A stretch of 64,000 nucleotides of DNA from Candidatus Latescibacterota bacterium (GTDB lineage: Bacteria; Latescibacterota; UBA2968; UBA8231). Where the stretch lies: the NCBI GenBank assembly GCA_965215195.1, contig CBDCDC010000002.1:3296001-3360000 (forward strand). The letters are read 5' to 3'. Under the pieces are notes generated by a model. That model ran no database searches. It was not told the origin of the DNA and worked only from the letters and a program-made list of their open reading frames with translations. The position numbers were made by a program, and so were the translations under genes. Below are positions 2,783 to 62,982 of the stretch, piece after piece (within the stretch, counting starts at the first letter, position 1; the number at the start of each line of letters is the position of its first letter).

Positions 2783-5446
2783 ATGGAAGCAATAAGGCGA
2801 AATACCGCGTCTGTCTTGGTGGTCTTGAGCTGCTTGCTAAGCCCGGCCCACAGCCAAACACCCGACTATGGCACGCGGCTGGGCGTCCCCCGCGGGAGCG
2901 GCGAGACCAGCTATGCCCCTTATGGCCCGGGCGTCCTCTTCGACGCGCTGGACCCGGCCGTCAAAAAGTGGTACGTGCCGCAGGAGCTGTACAACGAATA
3001 CCGCTGGCGCCAGTGGGAGTACAGCAACTACGCCCGCAACCAGTACCAACGCTACGTCGATATCCAGCTAGAGGGCGACTACTACTACGACCTATTTGGC
3101 AATGCCATCACCCGCGGCTGGCTCATCTTTAGCAACTCCCAGACCCAGCCGCGGCAATTTGGCAGCTCGCTGGTCAAGGCCACTCGCTTTAATAACTGGT
3201 TTTCGGGCGTGGCTATTGCCTCGGACAGCAAGGGCCAGTACCACTACGCCCTGACCGTGTCGAATCGCCTGCGCACCACGCTCACTCCCATGAGCTTTTC
3301 CAAACCCTCTTGGGACGGAGTCCAGTTTGACATGGCTACCGACAAGTACCAAGGCACCGTCATCTACTCGCGCCTTAGTTCGCCCGGCGGGGCCTCAACC
3401 GACAACACCGAGATTCTCACCACCAACCTCACCACCCTCATGGGCGGCCGGGCCACCGCCCAGATCGGCGACTTCACCCAAGTCGGTGCTCACTTCGTCA
3501 ACACCCACCAGTCCAATACCCTGCGCGACGGCTTTAAGGGCAACCCCATTGCCGGGGCCTTGACGGTTGACCAGACCCAGACCGTTTCCTTCATCGAACT
3601 GGTCCTGCGCGACGACTCGCCCGCCGATGGCAGCGGTGGTGCCGCCTTCTTCCCGGTGGGTTCGGACATCATCATTACCTACAACGACGGCACCGTGGAC
3701 CGCGGCCGGGAAATCCGCTTTGAACCAGCCAGCCAAGGGGGGTTCGTCCAAGAGGGCTTCATCTCGGCCGATGGCACCGAAGAGATCCGCCTGCTCTACG
3801 ACTTCGACACGCCGGCCTTCGTCAACCGAGCTTCGGGCCCCAAAGAAGAAATCGCCCAAGTCGAGTTCGAGCTGACCATTGGCAACGACTATCAGGTGTG
3901 GATGACCTCCAACAACCAGACCAATCGCAGCGGCGAGCCCGTGCTGCTGCTGGTGGCACAGGCCGAGGGCAATGTGCAGGACAACACCAACCTCCGCATC
4001 CTCAAATTCGAGTACGGCCTGCCTACGGCGACGCAAATTGTCGGGGCCACCCTAGAGCTGCGGGACGTGGCCGGCTTCAACTTTTACGGCGAGTACGATC
4101 TGAGTGTAGCCTACCGCAAATACCCCAGCGTGACGCGGACCAGCCACACCACTGCGGCGGGCGTGGCCGGGGAGCAGGTCGAGCCCGCGTGGATGGTCAA
4201 CCTGTCCAAGGTGGCCCATCCGTGGTTCTTTTTTGGCGAAGCGTACAGCATGGATCCGCTCTACAACACCCGCACCTTTGTCACCGGTTCGGCCGGCAAT
4301 ATCGACTACGAAAACGAGCGCTTCCACGTGGTGGAGCTGGTAGAGGACAACGACGACCAAGACCGCGCACCCGACCTAGTGCGCGCCGATTCCCAAGCCG
4401 GCGACCGCCGGGTCTTCCCCGGCTGGGACGAGAACTACGACTTCATCTCGGACTTCAACCAAAACGACAACCTAACCATCTCCAACGGCATCCCCGACTA
4501 CGACGAAGCCTTTCTCAGGCACCGCGTCGACCGACCCGACTTCCTCTACGGGATCGACATGAACAACAATCTGTGGGTCGACCGCTTTGAAAACGACGAA
4601 TCCCCAGACTACCCCTATCAGAAAGACCGCCGCGGTTTCAACGCATATATGGGATACCGGCTGACCCCGGACATCCGCTTGACCATCGGCCACCTGCGCG
4701 AGGAACTGATCTCGGCCGACAAGCGCAACCACACTTCCTACGCCCTGTTCGGCCTAGACCGGGACGATCCCCAACAAGGGCGCTTGCGCTTTATGCAGAT
4801 GGTCAAGCTGGCCCAAGACAACATCCCGGACGACCTGCTCCAGTGGTTCCCGGAAAACACCCAGCGCGATGGCCAGCTCCAAAAAGTGGTAGATCCCCTT
4901 TTGGCCCAAGACACTTGGATCAATACCACTTGGCTGGGACACACGTACAACCGCGGCGGCTTGGAGGCGTACAACTATCTCAACTTGGAGCTTTTCCACC
5001 AGCGCGACGACGCGGCCTTGCGCGAGACGGACTCCTTTTTTGGCGTCATCAACAAGCTCAGCTACCGCTACGATCTGGGCACTGTCCAACTCGAGCCGCG
5101 CTGGAAAAGCGAATATCGCCGCCAGACCGTGGGGCTGTTCACGGCCGACGAGGAGACGGTGCTGACCGAGATACTGGGGTTCCTCTTGGGGTTTCCCATC
5201 CTCAACAACACTCGCATTCAAACCGGGATCGAGTACTCTTTCGCCAACGACATGAAGCGCGACAACAACGATTTCACCGGGGTCGCCGGGGCCTTGCAGC
5301 TAGCCAATGTGAGTTCCTACTTGGGCTACGAGGTATCCGCCCAAGTGGGGCTCAAAGCAGATTGGCGCGACTTCAAAAGCATTGAACGCGAATCGGAAAT
5401 CCTGACCCAAGGCTTTATCACCCTATATGCTGGCTTGGGCAAATAG
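2783..5446 (+). CDS. Conserved ~890-aa secreted, possibly outer-membrane protein; paralog of 58254-60923
   Basis: Signal peptide (..LLSPAHS/Q). Long blocks near-identical to the paralog (GPGVLFDALDPAVKKWYVPQELY.EY.WRQWEYSNYAR). Asp/Asn-rich DENxDFISDFNQND and DMNNNxWxDRFEND motifs; C-terminal amphipathic beta-strands. Confidence 0.75.
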   Translation: MEAIRRNTASVLVVLSCLLSPAHSQTPDYGTRLGVPRGSGETSYAPYGPGVLFDALDPAVKKWYVPQELYNEYRWRQWEYSNYARNQYQRYVDIQLEGDYYYDLFGNAITRGWLIFSNSQTQPRQFGSSLVKATRFNNWFSGVAIASDSKGQYHYALTVSNRLRTTLTPMSFSKPSWDGVQFDMATDKYQGTVIYSRLSSPGGASTDNTEILTTNLTTLMGGRATAQIGDFTQVGAHFVNTHQSNTLRDGFKGNPIAGALTVDQTQTVSFIELVLRDDSPADGSGGAAFFPVGSDIIITYNDGTVDRGREIRFEPASQGGFVQEGFISADGTEEIRLLYDFDTPAFVNRASGPKEEIAQVEFELTIGNDYQVWMTSNNQTNRSGEPVLLLVAQAEGNVQDNTNLRILKFEYGLPTATQIVGATLELRDVAGFNFYGEYDLSVAYRKYPSVTRTSHTTAAGVAGEQVEPAWMVNLSKVAHPWFFFGEAYSMDPLYNTRTFVTGSAGNIDYENERFHVVELVEDNDDQDRAPDLVRADSQAGDRRVFPGWDENYDFISDFNQNDNLTISNGIPDYDEAFLRHRVDRPDFLYGIDMNNNLWVDRFENDESPDYPYQKDRRGFNAYMGYRLTPDIRLTIGHLREELISADKRNHTSYALFGLDRDDPQQGRLRFMQMVKLAQDNIPDDLLQWFPENTQRDGQLQKVVDPLLAQDTWINTTWLGHTYNRGGLEAYNYLNLELFHQRDDAALRETDSFFGVINKLSYRYDLGTVQLEPRWKSEYRRQTVGLFTADEETVLTEILGFLLGFPILNNTRIQTGIEYSFANDMKRDNNDFTGVAGALQLANVSSYLGYEVSAQVGLKADWRDFKSIERESEILTQGFITLYAGLGK

Positions 5447-7664
5447 GGCGCGGGCGCTGCACTGGCCCAAGCTGGCGGCCTTAGCTGTCTTGGCCCTAGG
5501 TCTGCGCTTGGGCTACCTGTTCCAAGCCACCGACAGTCCCTTTTTCGACGCGCCGATTGTAGATGCCCGCAGCTATACCGAATACGCCCGCGAACTGGCG
5601 GCCGGCTCTTGGGCTGGGCGTCCGATGCCGTTCTGGCAGGCCCCTTTTTACCCGTATTTCCTAGGCGTTCTCTTTTCTCTTTTTGGCGAAAACTACTACC
5701 TGCCGCGGCTACTCCAAGCCTTGGCCGGCACGGCCACCTGCCTGATCGTCTTCAAGCTAGGCCGCGAGACCTTTTCGCCGGCGGTGGGCTGGGTAGCTGC
5801 CCTAGGCGCGGCCCTGTACGGCCCCTTCCTCTACTTTGAGGGCGAACTTTTGCCCACGACTTGGGCCGTGCTTTTCGCCGCGGTGCTGCTGTTGGTCTTG
5901 TTGTGGGGCCAGCGCCGCGGCGGCGCACTTCCCGCGCTTGTCGCCGGACTCGTCCTAGGGCTGGGCACCTTGGCCGTGCCGAATGTGTTGCTCTTTGCGC
6001 CAGTAGCGGCTTGGTGGGTGTACCGCTGGTGGCCCCGCTGCCGCGGGCTCCACCTGGCGGTCTTTGCGGCCGGCCTGCTGCTGGTGGTAGGCCCGGTGAC
6101 CCTGCGCAACCGCATCGTCGGCGGCGAGTGGGTGCTCATCTCCTTCAACGCGGGCGTCAACTTCTACCTCGGCAACAACCCAGACTACGACCGCACCACA
6201 GCGGCGCGGCCCGGCGCGGGGTGGAGCGATGTGATCGACTTGCCTCAGCGCGAGGCCGGCATCACCCAGCCGGGCGCCGGTTCGAGCTACCTTTTGGGCA
6301 AATCTTGGGAGTATATACGCACCGAGCCGAGCAGCTATTTGGCCCTGCTTTTGCACAAGGGCTATCTGTTTTGGCACGGAGCCGAGATCCCCCGCAATAG
6401 TGATCCGTACTCCGCCGCTGAGTACTCGCCGCTGTTGCGCCTTTTGCTGTGGAAGTACGGGCTCGCGTTTCCCTTTGGCTTGGTCTCGGCCCTCGCCCTG
6501 CTCGGGGTGGCCTATGTCCTGCTCAAACCGGAACGCCGCACCCCAGCGGCCTATCTCGTCTTGCTCTTTGCCGGAGTCTATATGCTGTCGGTGGTGTTGT
6601 TTTTCGTCACGGGCCGCTACCGCTTGCCAGCCGTGCCTTGTCTCTTGCTGCTGGCCGCCTATGGCGCTTGCACTTTGGCTGGTTTGCGCCACAGACCCTT
6701 GTATCTGTCGGCTGGTGCCCTCGCCTTGCTGCTGTTGGCGACCAACGCCGGGACCGCGGCGACCAGCCCGCACGTGGCGGCTTTCCACCACTACTCGTTG
6801 GCGGCCGTCTATGAGAGCAAAGGCATGAAGACCAACGCCTTGCAGCACTACCGCCGTGCAGTTGAACTAGCCCCGGCTCACGACCGCGCCCTCCTCGGCC
6901 TAGCCCATATGTACGGGGCGACCCAGCGCTACGATGACGCTGCCCACACGTGGCGGCAATTCCTCGACCACTATCCCGACCAAGACGACGTCCGCCTCCA
7001 GCTAGCGGATTTTCTTCGGCTGCGGGGCCAACCCCAAGAGGCGGCGGCCGAGTACCAAAAGCTCCTAGTGCGGCAACCAGCCCAAGCCCACCTGTACCTC
7101 CGCCTCGGTCGGGCCGAAGCCGCGGCCGGCCGGCCGCAGCAAGCCGAAGCGGCCTATCTCCGCGCACTCGAACTGGACTCCCATGCGGCGTACTACCTGC
7201 TAGGTCAGCTATACGAAGGCCAAGGCCAGTCCGAGCGCGCCGAACAAGCCTATCGGCAGCTAGTAGCCCGTCAACCCGACCATCTCGCCGGGCTGTGCCA
7301 TTTGGCCGATCTGCTCCTAAAGCGGGGGGACGCGGAAGCAGCCAAAGGCCATTTGCTCGCGGCGCTGGTGCTCGAGCCCGACAACGCGCACGCCTTGCGC
7401 AGCATGGGGACCTTAGAGGCCAACCAAGGTCAGTACCGCCAAGCTCTCCAGCGCTTTGAGCGCATCTTGCAACACCACCCCGGCGATCTCCAAGCCCGTC
7501 GTGCCCTATCTCATCTTCTGCTCAAAATGGGTCAACGCGCACGCGCCGATGCCGAGTACGCCCGCTACCAGCACCTAAAGCGGCAGCAGCGCATGCAGCA
7601 ACAGACGTTGGAAAAAACCAAGGAGCTAGCCGACCAACTGCGGCAGATGTTCAAAGCGCCCTAG
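5427..7664 (+). CDS. GT-C fold membrane glycosyltransferase (PMT/ArnT-like, family 39/83) with C-terminal TPR repeats
   Basis: VDARSY...PFWQAPFYPYFL, many TM segments, ISFNAGVNFYLGNNP, GRYRLP, followed by multiple TPR helices. Confidence 0.8.
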   Translation: MLAWANRARALHWPKLAALAVLALGLRLGYLFQATDSPFFDAPIVDARSYTEYARELAAGSWAGRPMPFWQAPFYPYFLGVLFSLFGENYYLPRLLQALAGTATCLIVFKLGRETFSPAVGWVAALGAALYGPFLYFEGELLPTTWAVLFAAVLLLVLLWGQRRGGALPALVAGLVLGLGTLAVPNVLLFAPVAAWWVYRWWPRCRGLHLAVFAAGLLLVVGPVTLRNRIVGGEWVLISFNAGVNFYLGNNPDYDRTTAARPGAGWSDVIDLPQREAGITQPGAGSSYLLGKSWEYIRTEPSSYLALLLHKGYLFWHGAEIPRNSDPYSAAEYSPLLRLLLWKYGLAFPFGLVSALALLGVAYVLLKPERRTPAAYLVLLFAGVYMLSVVLFFVTGRYRLPAVPCLLLLAAYGACTLAGLRHRPLYLSAGALALLLLATNAGTAATSPHVAAFHHYSLAAVYESKGMKTNALQHYRRAVELAPAHDRALLGLAHMYGATQRYDDAAHTWRQFLDHYPDQDDVRLQLADFLRLRGQPQEAAAEYQKLLVRQPAQAHLYLRLGRAEAAAGRPQQAEAAYLRALELDSHAAYYLLGQLYEGQGQSERAEQAYRQLVARQPDHLAGLCHLADLLLKRGDAEAAKGHLLAALVLEPDNAHALRSMGTLEANQGQYRQALQRFERILQHHPGDLQARRALSHLLLKMGQRARADAEYARYQHLKRQQRMQQQTLEKTKELADQLRQMFKAP

Positions 7665-12927: not shown

Positions 12928-13029
12928 AATCTGCCTCCTTTGTGGTGTGATCTAACTCAAAATCAAACAGAGAGCTACGGGCAAAGTTCGTTGCCCTTTT
13001 CTGGCATCGCAACGATATTTTTGCCCACC

Positions 13030-32721: not shown

Positions 32722-32766
32722 TGCGAATTTGCGCAACCTCTATAAAGGCAAATTTTGGCTATAGAT

Positions 32767-48883: not shown

Positions 48884-48893
48884 GGAGAAAAAT

Positions 48894-50776: not shown

Positions 50777-53472
50777 TCAATACGCCACCCCCACTAGGCG
50801 GGCAGCCGAGTTGTCAGCCCTCGCGTCGTCATCTACCTCAATACGGGCGAGGTAAAGGCCCGGGGATACTAAAATTCCCCCTGCATCTCGTCCGTCCCAG
50901 ACGAGGCGATACAGCCCGTTTGCCATGTTGCGCCTCTCAGAAAGACGCCTCACTTTCCTGCCTGCCAAGTCGTAGAATTCCACCGCTACTTGCCGGGCTA
51001 CATTGACTTTGAGCACGGCAAACGAAAAGACAGCCGCGTCGTTGATGCCGTCGCCATTTGGGGTAAAAGTGGTGGGATCCACCTCGATCATCCCGATCTG
51101 CCCGCGGCGGTCGGTCGTCAACACTGTCAACCCCTCACCTGCAGCCAATTCGTCGCCTACCGGGTTCGCTGGATCCACCCGTTGCCAGTTGTCCGCTTGC
51201 GTCGAACGCCCAACCTCGGCCGCAAAAGTGGCACCGCTCAGGAAAACGCGCGACGAAAAAGAGAGCCGCACAATATCCGCACTGCCTCGCCGCAGTATCC
51301 TTGGCAAGCCAAGTTGCAGCGTGTCGCTTGTCGCCCTAACCAACTCCAGCCTCTCCCCCACCCCATTCTCAAAACGTCCTTTTGCCACCTCGGCAAATAC
51401 TTCCTCGTTTCCGGCTGCAAATTCGCTTTCGTCTCCCAAGCTCACTTGGCGCAGTTCGATAGTCGCTTGCGAAGGAGCGATGAGACGGATGCGGTCAAAT
51501 CCCGGGTCTCGAGCGGCAAAGGAGGGGCGGATGAAGAGGTCGAAATCGATGAGTTCGCCGAGGGAGACATTCCGCTTGGGCTCTATTTCTCCGCCGATGC
51601 GCTCTACCAGCGGGGCCGTGAAGTGGACTTGGATCGACTGCAAGCTGGCGGCCGCGGCCGCGTCTTCACTGAGCAGTCTCGTCTGGAGCATCATATAGCG
51701 CCGGGGATTGGGGGAACGTATGACTTCGCCCGGTTTGACGTAGGCTTGACTCCAGTTGCTCCAGCCCGCTCCCGGCAGAAACTCGGTAAGGATCTCCCCT
51801 CTGTAGAAGGACGGCTGAGCTTCGTATTCTTCTTTGTTGGCTACTTCTGTGCCGTCTTTCTTGAAATAGCGGTTTACCTCGCGCAGATCGTTTCCCGTGC
51901 GGGTGCGGATTTCCACCGCTGTGCCCGGGGGGGTGTTAGCTTCCCATTCGATGGTAGAAAGCGTCTTGGAACTCTCCAGATCGATGAGGTCGGAAGTCAT
52001 CTCGAGGATCGGCAAGTGCCCGTTGGCGAAGACTTGGATTTCGGTCACCGTGCTCAGTATCCGGTGCCCTTCATGGGCCCTAGTGCGGCGGGCAATATCT
52101 AGGTTGCGGAATTCTAGAAAGCGCATCGGGCGCGGTGCAAAGCGATCCTCGAACAGGCGCGTATTCTGGTTTAGCTGCCGCGTCTCACCACTCAATTCCT
52201 CCCAGATTAAACTGCCATCGGATGCTAGCGAGCCGTCCGAACCGCGCAATAGATAACCAATCAGGTTTCTTCCTCCGACGCGGGTAATGATGCGCACGGC
52301 GTGGACTAGGAAGTGGGTGCCCAGATCCACGTTCAACAGACCCCATTCGGCGGTCTCCCCAGTGGGAAAATAGACCATGCCCTGCCACTCGGTACGCACG
52401 TTGCCGTCAACGGCAAGTTCGGGCGAAGAATTGGGATTGACGTCGTGCAGACTGCCGCCGCGCTCTACGATCCCCAAGGCAATGTTCTCGCCCACACTCA
52501 CACCTCCACCTCGGCGAGTTGAGGCCGTTCGCGGCGGTAATAGCGCACCCCGCCCTGCTGCTCAAATGGCAACTGGTCGTAGCGCTCGGCCGTTACTAGA
52601 CGCTCTTCGCTGGCGATTTTCCAGACGTATTCCACAGCACCTTGGTCCTCTGCTGCCAGCGCCTGATACTCCTCGGCCGAGAGCTGTTGCGCCCGCTCGC
52701 CGTTGGTGGCCGTGACCGCGATGCGCAGGTACTGCATAATGCGGCCGGCCCACTCCTCTGCATAGGTGCCCAGCGGTGCGAGATCGAACTCAAAGACCCG
52801 CTGGGCGCGATTGGGCTGGGTAGTGCTGCCGACCAAGGCGTAGTCCAAGGCGCCGCTGCGGTCGGCCGTGCCAAAGGGATTTTGCCCCCCTGCCGAATGC
52901 ACCCTGAATTGCAGGAACGGATCCCCTTCTTCGGCAAAGCGCACGACGACCTTGGTGGCCGACACCAGACGGCCCAGATCGATCTCCAACACCCAGTCCT
53001 GTAGGGGGTCCGCCGGATCCGGCTCCCAAGCTGTCGCCGGATCTGCGTCAATGGCCCACTCTGCGAGTTGCGGATTTGAACCGGCCCTTTTGATACCGCC
53101 GTGCGCCAGCAGCGCGTTGTTTTCGTCTTGGAACGAATTGGCGTACTGATCCCGCAAGCTGCCATCAATGGGATAGCTAAAGTCGGCCGCATTCAATATG
53201 GCGTTGTGCGGTACTTGTACAAATCTGGACTGCACTGAGCCAGATGGCGTTATCGCCACCATGTCCCGCGGAAAATCCCAAGCCTGCCAGTGCGCCTCGG
53301 TTCGCACCTCCACCTGACCCGCGCCCATACTGTAACCCCTCGACTGGGCCCATACCCCGTTTAGAGCCATAGGGAGAAGGGCTACACAATAGAGAGCCGC
53401 GGACAAAAGACCCAATCGCCGCACGGCGGTCGCCAAAATCATCGAGTACTGTGCAAGCAAGCAGCGTTTCAT
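50777..53472 (-). pseudogene. Discoidin + FlgD-Ig CTD protein split by a 1-bp frameshift near 52499 (or sequencing error)
   Basis: ORF 52498-53472 ends RERPQLAEVEV* and ORF 50777-52501 continues SVGENIALG; the paralog at 2-2758 reads RERPRLAEVEVWGWGDNL. One missing G turns TGG AGT into TGA GT. Confidence 0.85.
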
Positions 53473-53502
53473 AACCTGTTGTCCCGGATAAGACGCATCT
53501 GT

Positions 53503-55248
53503 TTATCGCGAATCATCGCCCTTGGTTGGGGCTTCCCATGTATGGCGTTGCAGGAACGCATCGGGCAGGGCCGCCTCCAACGCGCTGTCAGATACGGCGA
53601 GCCGCTCTTTGTACTTGTCCAGCAGATCGTCGATCAGTTCCTCAAAAAGCTGCTCTCGCTTCTGTCCGCGCACCAAAGCCCGCGCCTTTTTCTCGACTTG
53701 AAAAAAGGGCGCTAACTCTCCCCCCTCGCGGTTGAGAACCTTAAAAATGCTGTATCCGCCTTTGACGCGCTCCGGGCCGGTTATTTCGTCGAGAGCGGCC
53801 GCCTTTACTGCTTTGAAGAGCCGCGGCTGGGTCAAACGCTCGTACTCGCCCAGAGGCATCAAGCCATCCTCTTCCTTCATACCCGGGCGAATAGTGTGCT
53901 TTTGCGCGAGCATTCCGAGGGTCGCACCTCGTTCAATGGTGCGCAGCAAACCAGCGGCTTCCACCTCGGTCTCGACCAGTACTTCAACGACGATGTATTG
54001 GGCCGGCTCCCTGAACAACCCCTCATTGTTCTCGTAAAAATCCCTCGCTTCCTCCCGGCTCGCCGCGGATTGGTCGATGATCTCTTCCTCGCGTAGCTGT
54101 TTGATCATGAATTCCGCGTGCATTTCCTCCAATCGCTGTTGTCCACCCGCCATCTCCGCCAATCCGGCCCGCTGCGCCGCCTCTGCCAACAAGGCCGGTA
54201 TCAGTACCAGTTCCCTCGCTGTATTGACTACTTCAGCACTGTCCCGCACACCCCAGCCGGACATGGCCCGCATATCCTTCCACAGGGCATTGAGGTAATC
54301 GCCCAGCGTGATCTGCCCCCCCTCATAGGTAAAGAGGGGCTGGTCCGCCTCCTCGGCGGCCAGATGGGCGCGTCGCACCCGGGGGTGGAGGGCCGCTTTA
54401 TTCAACAGGAGCTCCACGCCCTCTGGCACTAGCTGCACGTCCAGCTTGCGGGTGAGGGCCGCGATTTCCGCCCTCTCCTGCTCTAGTCGCTTGCGTTCGT
54501 AAAGTATATCGCGGATCTGCTGTCGTCTCTCCTCGAGCGCAACGGGCTGGTCTTGGAGAAAACGCACGATCTGGTAGCGCGTACCCATGGGCATGATCGG
54601 GGATAGCTGTCCACTCGGCAGACTGCGGAACACCTCGTCTGGAATCTGCAACCTGCGAGCCTGCTCCAGATCGATAAATCCCAGTACGCCCCCCTGAGAA
54701 GCCGACCGTTCGTCTATGGTGTATTCGGCGGCCAGCCGGGCAAAATCCCCGCCCGCTTCGAGTTGCTCATAGATTTGCTTTGCAGTGCTGTCTTCTTCCA
54801 CCAGAATGCCCGCCATCTGGCGCTTGCGGTCCAAGCCGCTGTGGGCGAAATAGGCGCGTACCTCCTCCTCGGAAACCTGTACGTTGGGTGCCAGTGCGAG
54901 CCGGCGATAGGTGTTGACCAAGTGCTGGCGCCAGTAGGGCATCACCTTAGTCTGTACCACCTCGGCGGTATCCAATCCCCGCTCTTTGGCCTCCAATACG
55001 AGCAGGTGCTTGGCCAGCAGACTGCGCAGGTAGTGCTTCCGCACCGGGTCGCCCTGCCCTTTGAGGCGCAAGGGCTGGGGCATCTGGACGACGAAATCGC
55101 GCATCTCGGCAGCCGAGATGGACGTGGAATCAATGCGCGCCACCACCCCGGGTTCGAGTACGACCTCCGCACCCGGAGAACACGCCGCGAGGCTCCATAC
55201 GAGTGCCAGTTCGCATCCTTGCCAAGTCCATGGTTTTCTGTGTCCCAT
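53503..55248 (-). CDS. SurA/PrsA-like peptidyl-prolyl isomerase lipoprotein with two parvulin domains
   Basis: LAAC lipobox; ILV...A..I...L..G.DFA.LA.EY......GG.LGFI, and a second parvulin-like repeat. Confidence 0.8.
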   Translation of the reverse strand: MGHRKPWTWQGCELALVWSLAACSPGAEVVLEPGVVARIDSTSISAAEMRDFVVQMPQPLRLKGQGDPVRKHYLRSLLAKHLLVLEAKERGLDTAEVVQTKVMPYWRQHLVNTYRRLALAPNVQVSEEEVRAYFAHSGLDRKRQMAGILVEEDSTAKQIYEQLEAGGDFARLAAEYTIDERSASQGGVLGFIDLEQARRLQIPDEVFRSLPSGQLSPIMPMGTRYQIVRFLQDQPVALEERRQQIRDILYERKRLEQERAEIAALTRKLDVQLVPEGVELLLNKAALHPRVRRAHLAAEEADQPLFTYEGGQITLGDYLNALWKDMRAMSGWGVRDSAEVVNTARELVLIPALLAEAAQRAGLAEMAGGQQRLEEMHAEFMIKQLREEEIIDQSAASREEARDFYENNEGLFREPAQYIVVEVLVETEVEAAGLLRTIERGATLGMLAQKHTIRPGMKEEDGLMPLGEYERLTQPRLFKAVKAAALDEITGPERVKGGYSIFKVLNREGGELAPFFQVEKKARALVRGQKREQLFEELIDDLLDKYKERLAVSDSALEAALPDAFLQRHTWEAPTKGDDSR

Positions 55249-55256
55249 GTCTTCTA

Positions 55257-57107
55257 TCAGTACGCCAGAGCGATAGACCCCAAGCGCTCCTCCCGCCCGC
55301 TGCCTGCTTCTACCGCGACGCGGTAAATGTACAGTCCTGGAGCTACCAATTCGCCTTGGTCATCCCGCCCGTCCCAAGCAGTTTTATAGAGTGCGCTACC
55401 CCCCTCCCTGCCGCCCAAGGTGCGCACTCGGTTTCCCGCCAGCGCGTAGATTTCCGTCGCGAGAGGCACGACATCGGTCAGACGCAGTAAAGTATAGGAG
55501 AACTGCACTCGGTCGTTGACCCCGTCTCCATTGGGTGAGAATGGGTTGGGAACCACCTGCACGGCGCTGAGCAGACGGCCCTTGAGCGGCGTGCGGACGT
55601 TCAAGGCGTCGCTCAACAACTCGCTCATAGCATCTCCGGGAATCACGCTCTGGGGTACTTCGTCGCGGTCCGCATCCGACACCGCGCCGCTGAAGGTCGT
55701 TCCATAGCTGAAGACTCGGGCGTCGAAATCTACTTCTAACAGCGTCTGGTCTTGGTCGATGCGGTCAAATTGGATGGCGAATTGGTGGGGATCTGCCGGA
55801 GCGAAACTCGGGGTAAAATCTTCTACTTCGCGGTCGATGCGCACCTCGTGGATGGCCTCCAGACGAGCGGGCGTATGCACCTCGAGAACATTGAAACCCG
55901 ATTGCCCGGCCTCTAGTCGAGTCCGCACTGCATAAGTAAACCGAACCGGGTCGGATGACTCAACAAAAGAAGGGTAGATCTCGCCAATCGCCTCGGCGAC
56001 TACCGGGGGTTGGGAAAATTCAAAAAACAGCGAGTCAATCTGTCCTCCCGCCAAGCTAGCAGAAAAAAAAGCGATGCGTAGCTGCACGTACTGCCGGGGG
56101 CTGGGAGAAAGCATCCGGGTGCCGGCGAGTCCGTCCGCATACTCATAGGTGTGCCATACGCTCCAGTTTTCCAGATCCGGGGTAATGCGCCCCTGCACGT
56201 TCTGGGGCATAGCCTCATACGCTTGGCGGCTCATGGGCCGACCGTTGATCCCGAGTGGCACTTCCTCTGCCCCCACGCCGGTCTTGCGCCAGTAGATTTC
56301 GGGCTGGTCATCGCGGCCGCTGCGGCTCTGGATGACTGTTTTCGCTCCTATATCGAGTTGGCCGCTCCACCAGATGCGTCCCAAACTCGATGCTCGTCCT
56401 AGATCGATCGGGTCGGACAGAAATGAGGCATGGGGAACAAACCCCTGACCGTACACCTCGAACTCGGCCACTTCCCAAGTCTCCCCCACTTCCACAGGGT
56501 GGAGATAGACGTGGCGTGCTATCTGGGGTTCGATATCCAGTTCGACCGCCGGGTTCAAGTTGTCTTTCTCGTCGCGGACTAAGGTCCAGATGAGATTCCC
56601 TTTTTCGTTTTTGCTCTCTTCCCTGCCGTCGTTGATATAAAGCCTAAACTGGCGGATCTTGTGCCCCGGATGATCGGCGCGGGTTGCAAAGCGGACCCCT
56701 TCAATGGGGAATGGGGCCCCCAGATCGAAGAACAGCGGCGTGGTATAGAAGAACCCGGGGCCGCGAAAGAAATTGATGCGCGGCGGATGTACAAAAGCCG
56801 TAGTCGAATCGCCATCTACTATCAGTACGCGGTCGTCTAGCCAATTGGCCGGCAGGGTGTAAATGCTCACCAAGCTGGTAATATCGCCATTCCGCTCGCC
56901 CATCGAGGCAATCAGATTCTCGCCGCTTTCGGCGCTGAATGGGCGGATGGCACCCGGCACTTTTTTCACGTCGATAGAACTCAGGGCACCGCTTCCACTC
57001 CAAGGGTTTCCGGCGCGGCCCCCCAGTTGGTAAAATTGGCGCGCCTCGGCCCGATAGCCCGCTCCCGCCATCAACCCTGTCAGGACTACAATCAGGACCT
57101 GTCTCAC
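55257..57107 (-). CDS. Secreted discoidin + FlgD-Ig CTD protein
   Basis: GTG start after AAGGAGG; signal peptide; VDGDSTT, FDLG, VAEFEVYGQGF, PNPFSPNGDGVND, WDGRD..G.LV.PGLY, ends IALAY. Confidence 0.8.
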   Translation of the reverse strand: MRQVLIVVLTGLMAGAGYRAEARQFYQLGGRAGNPWSGSGALSSIDVKKVPGAIRPFSAESGENLIASMGERNGDITSLVSIYTLPANWLDDRVLIVDGDSTTAFVHPPRINFFRGPGFFYTTPLFFDLGAPFPIEGVRFATRADHPGHKIRQFRLYINDGREESKNEKGNLIWTLVRDEKDNLNPAVELDIEPQIARHVYLHPVEVGETWEVAEFEVYGQGFVPHASFLSDPIDLGRASSLGRIWWSGQLDIGAKTVIQSRSGRDDQPEIYWRKTGVGAEEVPLGINGRPMSRQAYEAMPQNVQGRITPDLENWSVWHTYEYADGLAGTRMLSPSPRQYVQLRIAFFSASLAGGQIDSLFFEFSQPPVVAEAIGEIYPSFVESSDPVRFTYAVRTRLEAGQSGFNVLEVHTPARLEAIHEVRIDREVEDFTPSFAPADPHQFAIQFDRIDQDQTLLEVDFDARVFSYGTTFSGAVSDADRDEVPQSVIPGDAMSELLSDALNVRTPLKGRLLSAVQVVPNPFSPNGDGVNDRVQFSYTLLRLTDVVPLATEIYALAGNRVRTLGGREGGSALYKTAWDGRDDQGELVAPGLYIYRVAVEAGSGREERLGSIALAY

Positions 57108-57144
57108 CGAGTGCCTCCTTTGCTTGGTTGCCAACCAAGAGAAC

Positions 57145-57176
57145 GGCGGGGTTCACAGTCGCCCGCGAACCCCGCC
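57145..57176 (-). terminator. Strong stem-loop after the 57221-58096 gene (terminator or mRNA stabiliser)
   Basis: - strand GGCGGGGTTCGCGG-GCGA-CTGTGAACCCCGCC: 14-bp stem including G-U pairs, GNRA tetraloop, weak U-tract. Confidence 0.6.
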
Positions 57177-57220
57177 TAAAACGATCCTTCGACCTCTGTG
57201 GTGCAGACAGTCGGGTCGGC

Positions 57221-58096
57221 CTATTTGAAGGTGGACTTGATCTGGCCCCAAGTGTTGGCCTCGACCGCGGTAGCTCTAGCCTCGGGCAATCCCTCTTCGA
57301 TTGGTGCCAACAAATAGTCGCCGAACTGGTCGGCATCCCTAGAAGCGCCTATGCCACCGAAACCGGACCAATAGGCATCGTCGTAGGAGCCGGGATCGGC
57401 ATCCTTGTCGCCCCAGTTGACCTCTATGCCGACGACTGTGCCTTCGACCCAATTGTGTCTGACACTCTGGTCGGGGCCGTCGGGATGGATGTCGTCAAAG
57501 GGCACAATGGAGTACTCGCCGAACATTTCGGCCGGCTCTTGGGTATTGACGTCGCCGCGGAGAAACTTGCCGGCCCACTCTACGTAAGGGGACTGGCCCG
57601 CCCACGCTTTGGAGCCATCGATAATCCGGGTATAATAGCCGGAAGAGCTGAAAATCGGGCCGGCCAGATCGTAGCGCTGGGCTTGGGCACTGGCCCAACG
57701 GGTCTCGAAGTCATCCCCTTGGTCAAAGCCGCGAAAGATGCCGCCGGTGTGATCCCAATCCGTGGTCGTCGACCACTTCTCGGTGTCGTTGATAAAGTCG
57801 TCGGCGATCCAAGCGCCAAAATAGGCCTTGCCGTCGTTGATGTTGTAGCCCCAGACGAGCCAGGCGTTGAAATCGCTCAAATCCATGGGCGCACCGAACT
57901 GGTTGAACATGGTTTCGGCTTTGATCTTGTACACATCGCCGACAATGTCCCAGTCCGACATATCGCCGTCCAACTCCGGCGTCAGGTGATCCGGGAACTG
58001 GAACATGAACCTGATCTCGCCTTGGTGGCCAAAAGCCGCGCCGACCACGAGGGCCGAGACCAATAAAGCAATGGACACCTGATTGATTCTCTTCAT
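57221..58096 (-). CDS. Secreted DOMON/CBM9-like protein with C-terminal TAVExxTWGxIK motif
   Basis: Signal peptide; P.LDGDMSDW; Trp/Asp-rich beta content; ends TAVEANTWGQIKSTFK. Confidence 0.7.
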   Translation of the reverse strand: MKRINQVSIALLVSALVVGAAFGHQGEIRFMFQFPDHLTPELDGDMSDWDIVGDVYKIKAETMFNQFGAPMDLSDFNAWLVWGYNINDGKAYFGAWIADDFINDTEKWSTTTDWDHTGGIFRGFDQGDDFETRWASAQAQRYDLAGPIFSSSGYYTRIIDGSKAWAGQSPYVEWAGKFLRGDVNTQEPAEMFGEYSIVPFDDIHPDGPDQSVRHNWVEGTVVGIEVNWGDKDADPGSYDDAYWSGFGGIGASRDADQFGDYLLAPIEEGLPEARATAVEANTWGQIKSTFK

Positions 58097-58253
58097 TGTA
58101 ATACCTCTTTTTCAGTTAGTGTGTGGACATTGCGCCCTTTGCTGCTCCAAGCGGGCCTGAAACGACGCCTGTTTCTTTCTCCTCCTTTCAGTTGCCAACA
58201 GATCGTCTGTTAAAAATATATCTTGAATTCAACTTTGAGGCAGGTCAAATCCA

Positions 58254-60923
58254 CTAGCGTTCCAGCCCTGCATAGGCCGTCATGAATATCTTGCTGGTCG
58301 TGCTAGAGGGCAAATTTTCAAACGTCAGCTTCTGTAGGCGAAATCCCGTCTGTAGATGGAGCCTGTAGCCGAGGTAATCCGAGGCGTTATTAAATTGCAG
58401 CGCGACGATGCGACTGAAGGAATCCGGCTCTAGGTCGCGCTTGACTGGCACCCCCTCGTCGTCGTCGCGGAACTGCTCAAAGTGGGATAGTTCTAGTCCC
58501 AATTCGATGAGCGTATGGGAGAGCAGGGGAATGCGGGCAATGAGAAAAAGCGTCTCGGTCAACTCGCGGCGCTCCGGGTCGCGCTTGCGAACGGGACGCT
58601 CGCGCAAAAATTCGCTCTTGAAGCGCGGTTCAAGTTCGATGTTTCCCACCGGGAAGGTGTAATCGACTTTGTTGATGAGACCGACAAAGCTGGCCGTGCT
58701 GCGTAGGTCGCGCTGATCCCGGCGCTGGTTGTAGGTTTCAGTCTTGAGCTTGTTGATTACGTTGAGGTTTCCTATGCGCGTGAAGTCGAACTGTACATAG
58801 GACGTGTTGACCCAAGTGTCGCGGGCCGGGAGCAAATCGAAAACGCGCTGTTGAGTGCCGCGGGAATTAGACGGCTGCACCCACTGGAAGAGGTTGTCGG
58901 GAATATCGTCCTCGACCAGCTTGAAGTTGTCGAACACCCGCAAGCGGCCCAACCGGGCAAAATCCCTTTCGTAGGTGAAGAGCAGGTACGTGGATTCGTT
59001 TTTGCGATCCCCGGCCAGCAGTTTTTCGCGCAAATGCCCGACGGTCAGCCGGGCCTCGGGGCCGATGTGGGTTCCCGCGTACATATTGTAGCCGCGGTGG
59101 TCGCGCCCGTAGGGATAATCGGGTTCTTCGTCGTTTTCAAAGCGGTCGATCCAGCCGTTGTTGTTCATGTCAACGCCAAAGAGGTATTCGGGTCTATCGG
59201 AGTGATAGCGCAGGAAGGGCTCTTCGTAATCGGGAATGAAGTTCTGTCGATCCTCGGTATCGTTCTGGTTGAAATCCGAGACGAAATCGTTGTTCTCGTC
59301 AAAACCTGGAAAGACCGCATTGTCCGACAGCATACTATAGCGGTTCCAGTCCGGCCGGCGGTCTTGGTCATCGTTGTCCTCGACGAACTCGTAGATATAG
59401 GATATTTCGTCTTCGTAATCGATTTCGTCCTGTCCCCGAGTACCCGCCAAAAAGGTGCGGGTAGAATAGTCGTCGTCCATGCTGTAGCCTTCGAGAAAGA
59501 CAAACCAAGGATAGGACGCCTTGGACAGGTTGAACATCCATGCCTCGGCGTCGTCAACCGCCTTGCGATGATCCTTTAGGTTGAGATTGGGATACTGGCG
59601 GTACTGCTTGTTGAAATCGTACTCCCCGTAAAAGTCAAAACCCCAGATCTTATTGGTCTCTAAGGTAACGCCGAGGATGGTATTGGCCGTGGGCAGGCCG
59701 TAGTCGAATTGCAACAGGCGCTGGTTGGAGTTGTCGCGGATATTATCCTCGGCCCGTTCGATCAGCAAAAAGACGGGCTGCGAGTCCCGGTTGGTCTGCC
59801 GGTCGGACGTGATTTCCACCTTGTAGTCGTTGGAGATCACCAATTCAAAGGATACTCTCTCAATAACCGTAGGATCGGGTCCTATGTACAAAGGGTCCGT
59901 AAAATCGTAGGTGAGGGTAATGCGCTCGTCCCCGTCGGCGGCTAAAAACCCCACCCGTTGGAATCCCCCTTCGCGTATGGGCTCGAATCCTATGGCACTG
60001 CCTCTGAAAACGTTGCCATCGACATCCTCGATGATGATTTCGTCGTCGAACAGGGCCGCCCCACCCACCCCGTCGGCAGGCGAGTCGTCCGACAGCCGGA
60101 TAATGATGCGGGATATGGGCAGCGCATTCTGGTCGGTGGTCAAGGCCCCGCCCGTGAAAGGGTTGCCGGTGAAATCGTCGAACAGCGTCTGGCCTTGGAA
60201 GGCGGTCACATAGGTCGCCCCGACCTCGACGAAGTCGCCAACCTGAACGATGCCCCGCCCACCAAGCAAGTTGGTGACACTGGTCTTCTGATCGGGAATA
60301 TCCAGCGAAGTGGCCACGGCCGGCCGACTGGGCCGGGCCAACAGGAGAGTACCCTGGTACTTATCGGCAGCAAAGTCCCACTGAATGCCGTTGAATGTGG
60401 GTTTAGAAAAGGTCATCGGTGTCAAAGTGGTGCGGATCTCATCGCCAATCGTGATGCTATAGTAGTATTGTCCCTTGTGGTCCGAGGAGACGACTACTCG
60501 GTTGAACCACTGGTTGAACCTGTTGGTCTTGAGGATGCTACTGCCGAATTGCTGGGGACGATCTTGCTGCCAATCGTAGATCAACCAGCCCCGGGCGACT
60601 AGATTGCCGAAGAAATCGTAGAAGTAATCGCCCTCTAACGCGGTGTCCACATAGCGCTGATAGGGCTCGCGGGCGTAGTTGGAGTACTCCCACTGTCTCC
60701 ATTGGTACTCCCTATACAGTTCTTGGGGGACGTACCATTTGCGCACTGCCGGATCCAGCGCATCGAATAATACCCCCGGTCCCTGCGGGGAAAAATCCAC
60801 CTCTCCACCTTGCTTCACTCTACCGAGGCGCGAGCCGTATGCTTGGGCACCAACCGGAGTCGGCGCACTCCAGCCTAGCGCGCAAAAAACAGCACCTACC
60901 ACAATCAGATAGCACTTGCTCAA
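58254..60923 (-). CDS. Conserved ~890-aa secreted, possibly outer-membrane protein; paralog of 2783-5446
   Basis: TTG start after GAGGAGG; signal peptide; colinear homology with 2783-5446; ends IFMTAYAGLER. Confidence 0.75.
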   Translation of the reverse strand: MSKCYLIVVGAVFCALGWSAPTPVGAQAYGSRLGRVKQGGEVDFSPQGPGVLFDALDPAVRKWYVPQELYREYQWRQWEYSNYAREPYQRYVDTALEGDYFYDFFGNLVARGWLIYDWQQDRPQQFGSSILKTNRFNQWFNRVVVSSDHKGQYYYSITIGDEIRTTLTPMTFSKPTFNGIQWDFAADKYQGTLLLARPSRPAVATSLDIPDQKTSVTNLLGGRGIVQVGDFVEVGATYVTAFQGQTLFDDFTGNPFTGGALTTDQNALPISRIIIRLSDDSPADGVGGAALFDDEIIIEDVDGNVFRGSAIGFEPIREGGFQRVGFLAADGDERITLTYDFTDPLYIGPDPTVIERVSFELVISNDYKVEITSDRQTNRDSQPVFLLIERAEDNIRDNSNQRLLQFDYGLPTANTILGVTLETNKIWGFDFYGEYDFNKQYRQYPNLNLKDHRKAVDDAEAWMFNLSKASYPWFVFLEGYSMDDDYSTRTFLAGTRGQDEIDYEDEISYIYEFVEDNDDQDRRPDWNRYSMLSDNAVFPGFDENNDFVSDFNQNDTEDRQNFIPDYEEPFLRYHSDRPEYLFGVDMNNNGWIDRFENDEEPDYPYGRDHRGYNMYAGTHIGPEARLTVGHLREKLLAGDRKNESTYLLFTYERDFARLGRLRVFDNFKLVEDDIPDNLFQWVQPSNSRGTQQRVFDLLPARDTWVNTSYVQFDFTRIGNLNVINKLKTETYNQRRDQRDLRSTASFVGLINKVDYTFPVGNIELEPRFKSEFLRERPVRKRDPERRELTETLFLIARIPLLSHTLIELGLELSHFEQFRDDDEGVPVKRDLEPDSFSRIVALQFNNASDYLGYRLHLQTGFRLQKLTFENLPSSTTSKIFMTAYAGLER

Positions 60924-60948
60924 AATCCTCCTCCTCGCTTGGCTGGCA

Positions 60949-62982
60949 CTAGTATACCACGGACACACTGTTGGAACGCCGCTCAATCTCCCGGTCGGAG
61001 CGGATTTCCACTACTGCTAGGTAGATGCCCGGCGGTACTAGGCGGTCGTCGTCGCCGCGACCGTCCCACTGTAGCTCAATGCGGCCGTTTTGCACCTCAA
61101 CAGAGCTGAGCCGCCGCACGCGGCCACCGGCCAAATCGTAAATAGTTACCTCGGCCGGCGATGGTTCGAGCAAGTGCAAAACCGCATAGCTTATTTCCAC
61201 TACGTCGTTGGCCCCATCTCCGTTGGGGGTGAAGGTCCGCGGCTGGATTGCCAGCGGACCAGCCACCTGCGAGCCCACGGGAATTCGCACCAGCAACTCG
61301 TCGGTATCCTGTTCGGCTGAAGCATCCCCGCCCTCGGTCTGCAGCGGCACTTGTACGCTGGCATCGGCAAAAGCCCGCCCTTGGAAACGCGTACCATAGC
61401 GGAACACGGCCGCATCAAAGACAATTTTCAAAAGAGTGCCATCGGCGTCGATCAGAGGTAAGCCTAGGGCAAAGTGGTCTTTTTCCACCGCCTCAATGGA
61501 GAACGATCCGACGCGCAGGGGCAAAGACACACCGGCCAGATCGCCGCCGAACTCGGCTCCAGCTAGGCGATTGCCCGCCCCATCTTGGATTTCTACCGAA
61601 TGGATGGCCGCGATGCGGGCCGGGGTTTCGATTTCAAAGCGCGTAAATCCCGGCCGGCCCGTAGTATTGGCGATGCGGGCGAAGTACGTAAAAGTCGTCT
61701 GTTCGCCGACCTCGGTCCGCGGCGGTCCCACCTCGGCGATGATGCGGTCAACCGGGGGCTGTGCGGACTGGAAGCCCAAGTCGGCGACAGCGCGGCCGGC
61801 ATCCAAGCTCAGATTGGTGAAATCGATGCGGAACTGGAAGTAGCGCCGCGGTGCCGGCACAGTCAGGGGAGTGCCGTTATCGACTAGTTGCCACTGGACC
61901 CAGCCGTTGTCGGTGTCGGCTTTGATGGGGCCCCGCTGATTTTTCGCCAGTTTCTCGAAGGTTTCCTCGGTCAGCGCATTGCCCTCGCTGTCAGTGGACA
62001 CATATTCGGATTGTCGGCCTCCTACATTGGCATTGCGGAAAAAGATATCAGGCGTCGTATCCTGCCCGCTGCGCACGCGAACTTCCATCTTGGAATCCGC
62101 GCTATTGCCGGCGGCCACTTCGCTCCAAGCGATTCGGCCCCAGACCACCTCCTCGCCCAGATCCAGCACATTGGACACATAGCTGGCCGTTGGTACGAAT
62201 CCCCTGCCGTACACCTCTATCTCGTCAATTTCAAATCCGAGGGTGGAAATCGACTTGAGTTGCAGAAAGCGGACAAATTGGGGGCTGATCTGTGCTTCTA
62301 CTCTGGCCTCGCGGTTGTCCGGCTCGCGCCGCACCGGCGAGGTGAAAATGGGCTGCCCACTGGCAAAGAGGTTTTGCGGCAAGCCATCGTTGAGGAACAA
62401 CTCATATCCCCGCATGAATTCGTTCCCAAAGGGAAACGACGCCGTCATCCGCGGATAGAACGCAATCCGGTCCACGCCAAAGCGCGCACCAAGGTCAATG
62501 CGAATGGTGACGCCGTTGTTGCGCACGATGCGGCCGGCCACGAACTTGCGGTCAAAAGCTACCCGGTGGTCGCCATTGAGCATGCCCGCCAATTGCTCTG
62601 GATCTTTCTGGCTGGCATCCAGCCCTGGAACATCTATAGTGCCCCCTCGCTCGAGAATACCGAGCGAAATGTTGAAGTCGGAGCGCAAGCGCAGCGGCGT
62701 GATCCAGTTCCGCAGAGAATCCGCGCCAACGGCGAACACTCTTCCGCCGTTGGCATCCTCGATAGTTCCGAGTTGCTCGACAAAATCGATCACGCCCCCG
62801 GGTGTTGTGCCAGAATTGCGCCAAGGACGTTCGTCGCCGCCGACCGTAAAAACATCCTGTGCGCTGGTTGGGCACACGGACAGCAGTAGCAGTAGGTGAA
62901 GAAAAATTGGCGCAGGAGGGACGCGTTTTTCACGTAGCGATTGCAGCAGCTTGAAAAGGGGACCGATGGGATGATATTCCAT
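60949..62982 (-). CDS. Secreted discoidin + FlgD-Ig CTD protein
   Basis: Signal-like N-terminus; IDLGARF, IDEIEVYGRGF, FTPNGDGAND, IYDLAG, WDGR....LVPPGIY, ends VSVVY. Confidence 0.8.
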   Translation of the reverse strand: MEYHPIGPLFKLLQSLREKRVPPAPIFLHLLLLLSVCPTSAQDVFTVGGDERPWRNSGTTPGGVIDFVEQLGTIEDANGGRVFAVGADSLRNWITPLRLRSDFNISLGILERGGTIDVPGLDASQKDPEQLAGMLNGDHRVAFDRKFVAGRIVRNNGVTIRIDLGARFGVDRIAFYPRMTASFPFGNEFMRGYELFLNDGLPQNLFASGQPIFTSPVRREPDNREARVEAQISPQFVRFLQLKSISTLGFEIDEIEVYGRGFVPTASYVSNVLDLGEEVVWGRIAWSEVAAGNSADSKMEVRVRSGQDTTPDIFFRNANVGGRQSEYVSTDSEGNALTEETFEKLAKNQRGPIKADTDNGWVQWQLVDNGTPLTVPAPRRYFQFRIDFTNLSLDAGRAVADLGFQSAQPPVDRIIAEVGPPRTEVGEQTTFTYFARIANTTGRPGFTRFEIETPARIAAIHSVEIQDGAGNRLAGAEFGGDLAGVSLPLRVGSFSIEAVEKDHFALGLPLIDADGTLLKIVFDAAVFRYGTRFQGRAFADASVQVPLQTEGGDASAEQDTDELLVRIPVGSQVAGPLAIQPRTFTPNGDGANDVVEISYAVLHLLEPSPAEVTIYDLAGGRVRRLSSVEVQNGRIELQWDGRGDDDRLVPPGIYLAVVEIRSDREIERRSNSVSVVY

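Follow-up and report, generated by a model that had tools for sequence, protein, structure and literature searches.

The closest described counterparts of the system presented here are the PorP/SprF outer-membrane barrels that accompany type-B cargo proteins of type IX secretion systems (T9SS). PorP/SprF proteins have about 300 residues, their gene lies directly downstream of the cargo gene and, in Flavobacterium, the C-terminal domain (CTD) of the cargo specifies its cognate shuttle. The genetic linkage between CTD cargo and an outer-membrane barrel gene in the T9SS of Bacteroidota is described in PMC9143113 and PMC12618676. The uncultured Latescibacterota degrade polymers and occur widely, but next to nothing is known of their cell surface; a Latescibacteria genome study (PMC4454575) assumes only non-specific porins there. 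We analysed a stretch of 64,000 nucleotides from a Candidatus Latescibacterota bacterium (assembly GCA_965215195.1, contig CBDCDC010000002.1, positions 3,296,001 to 3,360,000; hereafter the window). Its region 50777-62982 represents a single copy of a probable surface module that is specific to the Latescibacterota lineage and strongly amplified, and in which a predicted barrel of ~890 residues (family F890) is encoded together with CTD-bearing lectin-like proteins. No description of the F890 family or of its cassette was found in the Latescibacterota literature on T9SS, secretion or outer-membrane polysaccharide, a search outside which supplements lay.

The F890 cassettes share with the PorP/SprF pairs (SprB-SprF, PG1035-PorP) the linkage of a barrel gene to the gene of a CTD surface protein, an FTPNGDGxND-type CHU_C signal on the cargo, the multiplication of such pairs within one genome and the adhesin- or lectin-like nature of the cargo. 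They differ in the barrel itself, which has ~890 residues instead of ~300, a predicted 24-26 strands, two inserts and no match to PF11751 or TIGR03519, and in the company that it keeps, namely a CTD of intermediate type, a parvulin lipoprotein, a CBM9-like protein with a C-terminal tag, a small lipoprotein and TPR proteins. They differ also in number, with 52 barrels here versus a dozen or so type-B substrates in F. johnsoniae according to PMC12618676. A second parallel is provided by SusC/SusD loci, which are likewise repeated and diverged, combine a large barrel with surface glycan-binding proteins and occur in dozens per genome. By analogy with PorP/SprF, the F890 barrel may be the membrane platform of a T9SS-delivered surface lectin complex, a reading that we put first among those considered while holding it tentatively.

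Amplification of the module is evident in the genome (6.13 Mb in two contigs, completeness 95.2%, contamination 8.5%). At least 52 F890 paralogs, detected by phmmer, are distributed over 38 loci, in keeping with the repeated unit proposed in a first-pass annotation of this DNA; tblastn yields 66 matches. Genes were called across the genome as our own greedy set of longest open reading frames (ORFs), 5005 in number, and counts derived from it are approximate because it missed the window's own gene for a 291-residue protein of the TWG family described below. A typical cassette comprises a barrel and one to three CTD lectin-like proteins, to which are often added the CBM9-like tag protein, a lipoprotein of ~230 residues, a double-parvulin lipoprotein and TPR or glycosyltransferase-like proteins.

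CTD proteins were collected with a locally iterated hidden Markov model of the window's CTD and clustered on their non-CTD parts. The genome encodes 225 of them, the domain ending within 15 residues of the C-terminus in 216, and a single family with subfamilies of ~670 and ~820 residues accounts for 127 members. A same-strand CTD gene is found directly upstream of 30 of the 42 runs of F890 genes, while the background is 184 of 4077 genes (4.5%; binomial p ~3e-31), and 39 of the 42 runs have a CTD gene within three genes. The association is selective, since a barrel stands no more than four genes away from 90 of the 127 cassette-family members versus 4 of the 98 other CTD proteins. Pairwise identity of the barrels correlates with that of the bodies of the upstream proteins (Mantel r 0.66, a value reached in 0 of 5000 permutations). 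By these comparisons the barrel and lectin genes have been duplicated and have diverged jointly; the figures on linkage and correlation describe co-duplication rather than prove interaction.

The module is also bound to its lineage. Of 121 genomes sampled from the phylum, 72 have a match to the F890 profile, including all those of f1 (40/40) and f10 (13/13) and none of f2 (0/29) and f3 (0/13), with first-look counts of up to 84 candidates per genome. The profile of the CTD family (E<=1e-30) matches 65 of the 121 in a nearly identical pattern (f1 40/40, f2 0/29, f3 0/13), the exceptions being f7, where only the barrel is found, and f10, where the CTD family is present in 7 of 13 genomes. GTDB representative genomes hold 619 stretches that encode F890 relatives. 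The best 76 of these 619 belong to metagenome-assembled genomes (MAGs) titled Latescibacterota, Latescibacteria or Gemmatimonad-, except for an 'uncultured bacterium' (L108) and a 'Woeseia' (L119). Across the 121 genomes and these best 76 loci F890 is thus confined to Latescibacterota-type MAGs, as its early description as lineage-specific implied. The family is small: of 1.84 billion representatives at 50% identity, only 1297 match with E<=0.001, a number that falls to 479 when E<=1e-30 is required, and the database relatives are all labelled 'hypothetical protein'. Note that L119 (JABIUH010000423.1) is a 12.8-kb contig of a Woeseia sp. MAG with an F890 homolog 58% identical to the query, for which misbinning is more likely than gene transfer.

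Gene order is conserved beyond the genome under study. Among the best 76 loci, 57 have enough upstream sequence to be evaluated, many of them being orthologs of the same cassette; a same-strand CTD gene stands directly upstream of F890 in 48 of the 57 and a CTD gene is present somewhere in 56. In a set of 20 loci taken from seven distant genomes, the order [TWG][~255 residues][CTD x3][barrel] is found in a genome of f9 (G016) and, without the gene of ~255 residues, in one of f6 (G009); 8 of the 20 loci have a CTD gene no further than two genes upstream. The adjacency foreseen for other genomes is therefore present in 48 of 57 loci and in canonical cassettes of f6 and f9. A soluble or enzyme-like F890 protein and a lack of consistent adjacency elsewhere had been named in advance as outcomes contrary to the proposal; what was found is a predicted barrel that matches no enzyme family and an adjacency to CTD genes that is consistent in other genomes.

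In the window itself the ORF list, Pfam and NCBIfam resolve the cassette into seven co-oriented ORFs on the minus strand that represent six genes, the number given in the first-pass annotation (Table 1). Pfam has no match in the ORFs of 910, 291 and 324 residues and places CHU_C and FlgD-Ig at the C-terminus of those of 677, 625 and 574 residues; NCBIfam agrees on the window proteins and adds weak matches to the C-terminal domain of PorU itself. The 625-residue protein is 34% identical to the 677-residue one in the family alignment. The three paralogous discoidin CTD proteins noted earlier are all recovered by CHU_C and FlgD_ig, the third being split into two ORFs that overlap by four bases in different frames. 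These two are collinear with one 1086-residue paralog, of which they cover residues 12-403 and 407-1086. In contigs of the public runs X1 and X5, which come from different studies, an additional base behind 52498 joins both in frame; they are therefore read as one gene of ~899 residues, the loss of one base at 52498/52499 in the window being probably due to faulty assembly or to variation between strains.

The start of the barrel gene is likely internal to its longest ORF. An AGGAGG box lies six bases ahead of a TTG at 60923, from which a product of 889 residues with a signal peptide would be made, and this product is more likely than that of 910 residues. The TTG is 26 bases past the stop of the upstream CTD gene. 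Gaps of 8-157 bases separate the six genes, a spacing compatible with a single putative operon. The core pair of CTD and barrel genes recurs on the plus strand of the window, as had been noticed before: its CTD protein begins 502 bases before the window and has a full length of 1086 residues, and its F890 paralog of 887 residues is 50% identical to the 910-residue ORF over 898 columns. Parts of the cassette are covered, with a likeness of 90-95%, by contigs from RNA libraries of runs X15 and X17, among them one of 3307 nt (54770-58072) and another of 2144 nt (55425-57567); they come from relatives, may include DNA and do not demonstrate a transcript.

Table 1. Genes of the cassette and of the second core pair in the window, with the ORFs that make up the third CTD gene.
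Feature	Position	Strand	Evidence
CTD protein, 677 residues: CBM32/discoidin-like N-terminus, Ig-like middle, CTD	60949..62982	-	CHU_C 33.2, FlgD_ig 35.5 bits
F890 barrel gene, longest ORF 910 residues, likely 889 residues	58254..60986	-	no Pfam/NCBIfam match; modelled paralog
CBM9-like secreted protein, 291 residues, tail TWGQIKSTFK, tag ...TAVEANTWGQIKSTFK	57221..58096	-	translation, family alignment
CBM32-like/Ig-like protein with T9SS-type CTD, 625 residues	55257..57134	-	CHU_C 28, FlgD_ig 23.7 bits
Double-parvulin lipoprotein, SurA/PrsA-like foldase, 581 residues	53503..55248	-	Rotamase 154-229, Rotamase_2 397-519, lipobox
Third CTD gene, ~899 residues, two CBM32-like domains and CTD	50777..53472	-	collinear with 1086-residue paralog
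First ORF of third CTD gene, 324 residues	52498..53472	-	
Second ORF of third CTD gene, 574 residues (CTD)	50777..52501	-	
CBM32 and CTD protein, 3' part	2..2758	+	F5_F8_type_C_2 31.2, CHU_C 36.2 bits
F890 paralog P0002, 887 residues, sequence modelled	2783..5446	+	
Membrane protein, 745 residues, PMT_2 (glycosyltransferase 39-like) N-terminus and TPR	5427..7664	+	PMT_2 29.5 bits, TPR families

F890 is predicted to be an outer-membrane beta-barrel of 24-26 strands that falls outside the solved families. The AlphaFold2 (AF2) model, built on the 887-residue paralog from an alignment of 69 sequences, has a pLDDT of 79.8 and a pTM of 0.79, and thereby answers in favour of a barrel the structural check suggested with the first proposal. 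It shows 24 strands of >=8 residues outside the inserts and two short ones (as assigned by DSSP). The first insert is a beta domain at 246-404, placed after about the eighth strand, and the second, at 491-615, is mostly coil and rich in Asp. A signal peptide is present in the 887-residue protein and in the window gene when read from the TTG start. In Foldseek the leading matches are MtrB (E 2e-10), Deinococcus SlpA, FimD and LptD with TM-scores of 0.14-0.37, while a VIA search is headed by the SlpA complex (7zgx_A, Z 13.7, 423 residues, rmsd 7.5, 11% identity), behind which porins, BAM and T9SS barrels reach Z 9-13. Every listed Foldseek match at E<=5e-5 and each of the 50 VIA rows is a membrane beta-barrel, in nearly every case from a bacterial outer membrane. 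At the sequence level neither window barrel has a Pfam or NCBIfam match at E<=0.01, the family profile has 0 matches among PDB sequences at E<=1, and the ESM Atlas returns unnamed clusters, the nearest named one being DUF6029 at 0.88, below the 0.9 threshold for a lead.

The Asp-rich insert and an N-terminal aromatic segment are the most conserved parts of F890 and the C-terminal barrel strands the most variable. Its invariant Asp/Asn positions sit in the Asp-rich insert, where motifs such as DxNxNxxVDxxE, which we take to resemble EF-hand loops, suggest calcium sites. The strand count taken from the DSSP string is the sole basis for the idea that the barrel might have an odd number of strands, to be completed by the tail of a TWG protein.

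The likeness to SlpA invites a structural reading, in which the barrels would be abundant outer-membrane or surface-layer scaffolds, the lectins adhesins without specific contact to them, and the diversity of the paralogs a surface variation directed, for instance, against phages or grazers. SlpA/SDBC is the longest-aligned structural match, and the combination of variable C-terminal strands with conserved inserts would suit such a role. The match has no counterpart at the sequence level, and the likeness to SlpA is that of large barrels in general; moreover, Pfam finds no SLH or other peptidoglycan-binding domain in the window barrels. The F890 paralogs, which are 23-63% identical, are too diverged for simple phase or antigenic variation, and the closeness with which they and the adjacent gene have diverged together points to a specific functional pairing. 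A purely structural role is thus regarded as very unlikely.

The proteins encoded next to the barrels are predicted to be lectin-like and devoid of enzymatic activity, with sugar binding as their probable function. Against the PDB, the profile of the 127-member family matches CBM32 structures at its N-terminus (4a41, E 3.8e-6; 4lks, 5.2e-6; 2v72, 5.8e-6) and FlgD Ig (5e-8), C5a-peptidase and PorU domains at its C-terminus. F5_F8_type_C_2 exceeds its cut-off of 27.8 bits in the CTD protein of the second core pair and matches many of the 67 cassette CTD proteins as well, in which Pfam identifies discoidin and CTD families only. The AF2 model of the 677-residue protein (pLDDT 87.1) is all-beta and consists of a string of beta-sandwich domains; its fold matches are the lectin domain of galactose oxidase, Ig-like and macroglobulin (MG) domains and PorU, with no enzyme core.

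The cassette CTD appears closest to type B while having an intermediate character. All of the 54 cassette CTDs have a CHU_C (PF13585) match at E<=0.01, the first reaching 41.7 bits versus a cut-off of 27; whole window proteins give 33.2, 28 and 23 bits. The type-B model TIGR04131 matches 47 of the 54, the window members reaching 16-21 bits versus a cut-off of 35, and the same set is matched by FlgD_ig (53/54), the PorU C-terminus (51/54) and the type-A model TIGR04183 (37/54). Another CTD family, of 28 paralogs with a median of 726 residues, is arranged at least partly in tandem arrays and has no member near a barrel gene; about nine CTD ORFs of ~715-755 residues lie at ~2.146-2.191 Mb of G000 C2.

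A T9SS-type export route for these proteins is plausible and documented in part. SprA_N scores over its cut-off in an ORF of 1969 residues (51.5 and 42.3 bits), PorU reaches 628.6 bits versus a cut-off of 420, and a PorV-like gene adjoins it with 147.6 bits versus a cut-off of 250. The search for T9SS core genes suggested with the first-pass annotation thus gave SprA and a PorV-like protein, with PorU in addition, and returned no match for GldL and GldM in a search without positive control. PorP/SprF (TIGR03519, PF11751) had no match in the genome, and since the control genomes were equally without one, its absence is not claimed. A gldK-like operon candidate, reached via FGE-sulfatase paralogs, was rejected as NCBIfam assigns its products to a Ser/Thr kinase-FGE fusion, FHA and HtrA-like proteins. 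In this operon, L149 (G000 C2:2887425-2894910), a Ser/Thr kinase-FGE-sulfatase-like fusion is followed by an FHA protein and by two HtrA-like plus FHA proteins.

That no match to GldL and GldM was obtained is one of the points that would favour export through F890 itself, the barrel being then an usher-like or mini-translocon channel for the co-encoded proteins and the parvulin lipoprotein their chaperone. A periplasmic foldase is co-encoded in ~25 cassettes, FimD/PapC ushers are among the fold matches (E ~1e-7 in Foldseek; 3ohn_B in VIA, Z 10.7, 347 residues), and the beta domain inserted in the modelled barrel recalls the usher plug. However, the SprA, PorU and PorV-like proteins that are present would serve all 225 CTD proteins, 98 of which were counted as having no barrel nearby. 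In addition, the usher fold scores no better than porins or LptD, and Pfam recognizes no usher N- or C-terminal domain in the window barrels. This is the least probable of the roles considered; it and a purely structural role are both less likely than a platform or a SusC-like function.

The genes that accompany barrels and lectins form a recurrent set. Pfam analysis of 111 non-CTD neighbours identified ~25 double-parvulin proteins, ~12 TPR proteins, four DUF6785+DUF6784 membrane proteins, which are possibly permeases, and five FG-GAP/ASPIC proteins; a GFO/IDH/MocA oxidoreductase, GDSL esterases and an FGE-type sulfatase maturase occur in some cassettes. Four of the TPR neighbours carry PMT_2/TMTC-type N-termini: besides the 745-residue protein of the window there are two directly downstream of a barrel and one upstream. 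A family of ~250-residue lipoproteins numbers 21, a barrel lying no more than 12 kb away from 17 of these, and its profile finds nothing below E 0.04 in PDB and Pfam. The N-termini of ten double-parvulin proteins all have a lipobox or a lipobox-like Cys motif. In the 581-residue protein of the window both Rotamase stretches exceed the Pfam cut-offs, so that the 'SurA-like PPIase' of the initial description stands as regards its two parvulin domains and its lipoprotein nature; it is not a SurA equivalog (NF008038, 20.4 bits versus 394) and the likeness is architectural only.

A barrel encoded with a lipoprotein and a foldase recalls LptD-LptE, a 26-strand barrel with a lipoprotein inside. LptD depends on SurA in E. 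coli, a dependence paralleled here by the co-encoded parvulin foldase; LptD is moreover of similar size, is among the fold matches, and has its counterpart of a small co-encoded lipoprotein. F890 differs from it by having no LptD match in Pfam, TM-scores of 0.17-0.20, 52 copies versus one and a lipoprotein without PDB or Pfam relative.

The composition of the neighbourhood also bears on the main rival explanation, a SusC-like role in which the barrel would be an uptake channel for oligosaccharides or polymers caught by the CBM32 and CBM9 proteins, that is, a non-TonB counterpart of a polysaccharide utilization locus (PUL). The number of F890 paralogs resembles SusC/D expansions and exceeds that of the TonB-dependent receptors of the genome (15 ORFs, 16 matches), all of which lie away from the F890 cassettes. 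Two kinds of carbohydrate-binding modules are present in the cassettes, and the DUF6785+DUF6784, GFO/IDH/MocA, GDSL, FGE-type maturase and FG-GAP/ASPIC proteins found in some of them would fit such a role. The predicted barrel of 24-26 strands would be wide enough, and its two conserved inserts could gate it. Unlike SusC/SusD loci, the cassettes have no TonB box, no Plug or TonB_dep_Rec domain in the window barrels and no SusD-like partner among the 111 neighbours, and their binders are predicted T9SS cargo rather than lipoproteins. No glycoside hydrolase or polysaccharide lyase was detected in the 111 + 67 + 18 scanned neighbours from this genome's cassettes, no PUL-typical regulator was found among the scanned neighbours and no energy-coupling element was identified. 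The 'PUL-like' label of the first-pass annotation consequently fits the layout of the unit rather than any catabolic role shown for it. A SusC-like function, weakened because enzymes, plug and regulators were not found, is considered possible though doubtful; it overlaps with a platform role, as the barrel could be both.

The 291-residue protein of the cassette belongs to the TWG family, whose members have a signal peptide, a weakly CBM9-like body and the conserved end TAVExxSWGxIKxxF; in the window gene this tail is encoded at 57221-57270. The family profile matches the CBM9 of xylanase 1i82 (E 2.6e-4) and 7nwn (8.7e-4) in the PDB; Pfam CBM9_1 (PF06452) is matched by 2 of the 22 members, at best with E 3.8e-5, but not by the window member. 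The proteome contains [STA]WGx[IVLM]K 51 times, in 49 cases among the last 25 residues, and this position is kept in 56 of 60 occurrences when all ORFs >=80 residues are considered. Its carriers are 27 CBM9-like proteins and 22 others, which form 19 clusters (three pairs and 16 singletons). Proteins with the tag are concentrated around barrels, 22 of 49 lying within 10 kb of one compared with 9.9% of all genes, and 21 of the 38 barrel loci have one. The tag is also found in distant families of the phylum (L058, L060, L061, L069, L071, L072). It is unlike exosortase-type signals because no transmembrane stretch follows it, and no literature containing the motif strings SWGRIK, WGRIKA, SWGxIK or TWGxIK was found. 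Our guess is that it might serve as a docking strand or as a sorting signal.

If the barrel does serve as membrane platform for a complex of lectins at the surface, the lectin-like proteins would cross the inner membrane by Sec, exit through the T9SS translocon and be held at the surface on or next to the co-encoded barrel, which would act as a platform in the manner of PorP/SprF. In the periplasm the parvulin lipoprotein would act as chaperone of either the barrel or the cargo, and the ~40 diverged cassettes would constitute a repertoire of glycan-binding surface complexes. A complex prediction of barrel residues 25-887 with the CTD of the upstream neighbour (110 residues) gave ipSAE values of 0.00 and 0.00, which is no answer either way.

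Several points weigh against the barrel being such a platform, and its role as anchor or exporter is a putative one drawn from gene linkage and analogy. F890 is some three times as large as PorP/SprF and is without PF11751 or TIGR03519 match at E<=0.01, and GldL and GldM have no match in the genome, although control genomes are equally without one and their absence is not claimed. The CTD itself covaries weakly with the barrel (Mantel r 0.23, reached in 6 of 5000 permutations). A single barrel goes with up to three CTD proteins, and barrels in tandem have one CTD gene in common. Neither the paralogs nor the related genomes are independent of one another, so that the statistics on adjacency and correlation overstate the support. 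Finally, in a genome of f7 (G003) the barrel stands beside a protein of ~445 residues with a hydrophobic N-terminal stretch in 8 of 10 loci, DUF4159 being matched in all three of these proteins that were scanned (3/3), while a CTD gene is present in just 2 of the 10 loci and directly upstream of the barrel in none. As these barrels mostly have no CTD neighbours, barrel function is not strictly dependent on CTD cargo. The G003 loci with this pairing include L054, L056-L059, L061 and L062. In the most diverged barrel triplets of the genome under study (L031 and L040 in G000) DUF4159 is found together with TPR proteins of 1040-1090 residues that have a YfiO/BamD-like region.

A bolder and unlikely extension of the platform role would be that Latescibacterota replaced both PorP/SprF anchors and SusC transporters by one class of giant barrel. 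Each of ~50 barrels would then assemble CBM32 lectins, a private parvulin and lipoprotein, and a CBM9 protein docking via its TAVExxSWGxIKxxF strand, which would be a general tag of ~50 otherwise unrelated secreted proteins.

About 2% of the genome (52 genes of ~2.7 kb in 6.13 Mb) is devoted to one unclassified barrel family, which is firmly tied to one family of 127 T9SS-type lectins. Should the barrels anchor or serve the lectins, they would represent a third solution, beside SusCD and PorP/SprF, for coupling surface binders to a barrel, and would extend T9SS cargo handling outside Bacteroidota. For structural biology F890 is a new family of predicted giant barrels with conserved, probably calcium-binding inserts. 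Five families, all now named 'hypothetical protein', become available to annotation pipelines, and the TAVExxSWGxIK tag may be a new sorting signal.

Genes of other kinds lie elsewhere in the window. Two restriction-modification systems are found between the two cassettes, at 31486-32736 and 42322-47078; one consists of a BglII-like endonuclease and an MT-A70 methylase, the other of an N6_N4 methylase and a ResIII/endonuclease protein. At 47153-50618 there are two adjacent paralogous proteins of ~580 residues with an N-terminal Rieske [2Fe-2S] domain and ~480 further residues without Pfam match. A 917-residue protein encoded at 12568-15318 combines an MFS transporter region with HEAT repeats.

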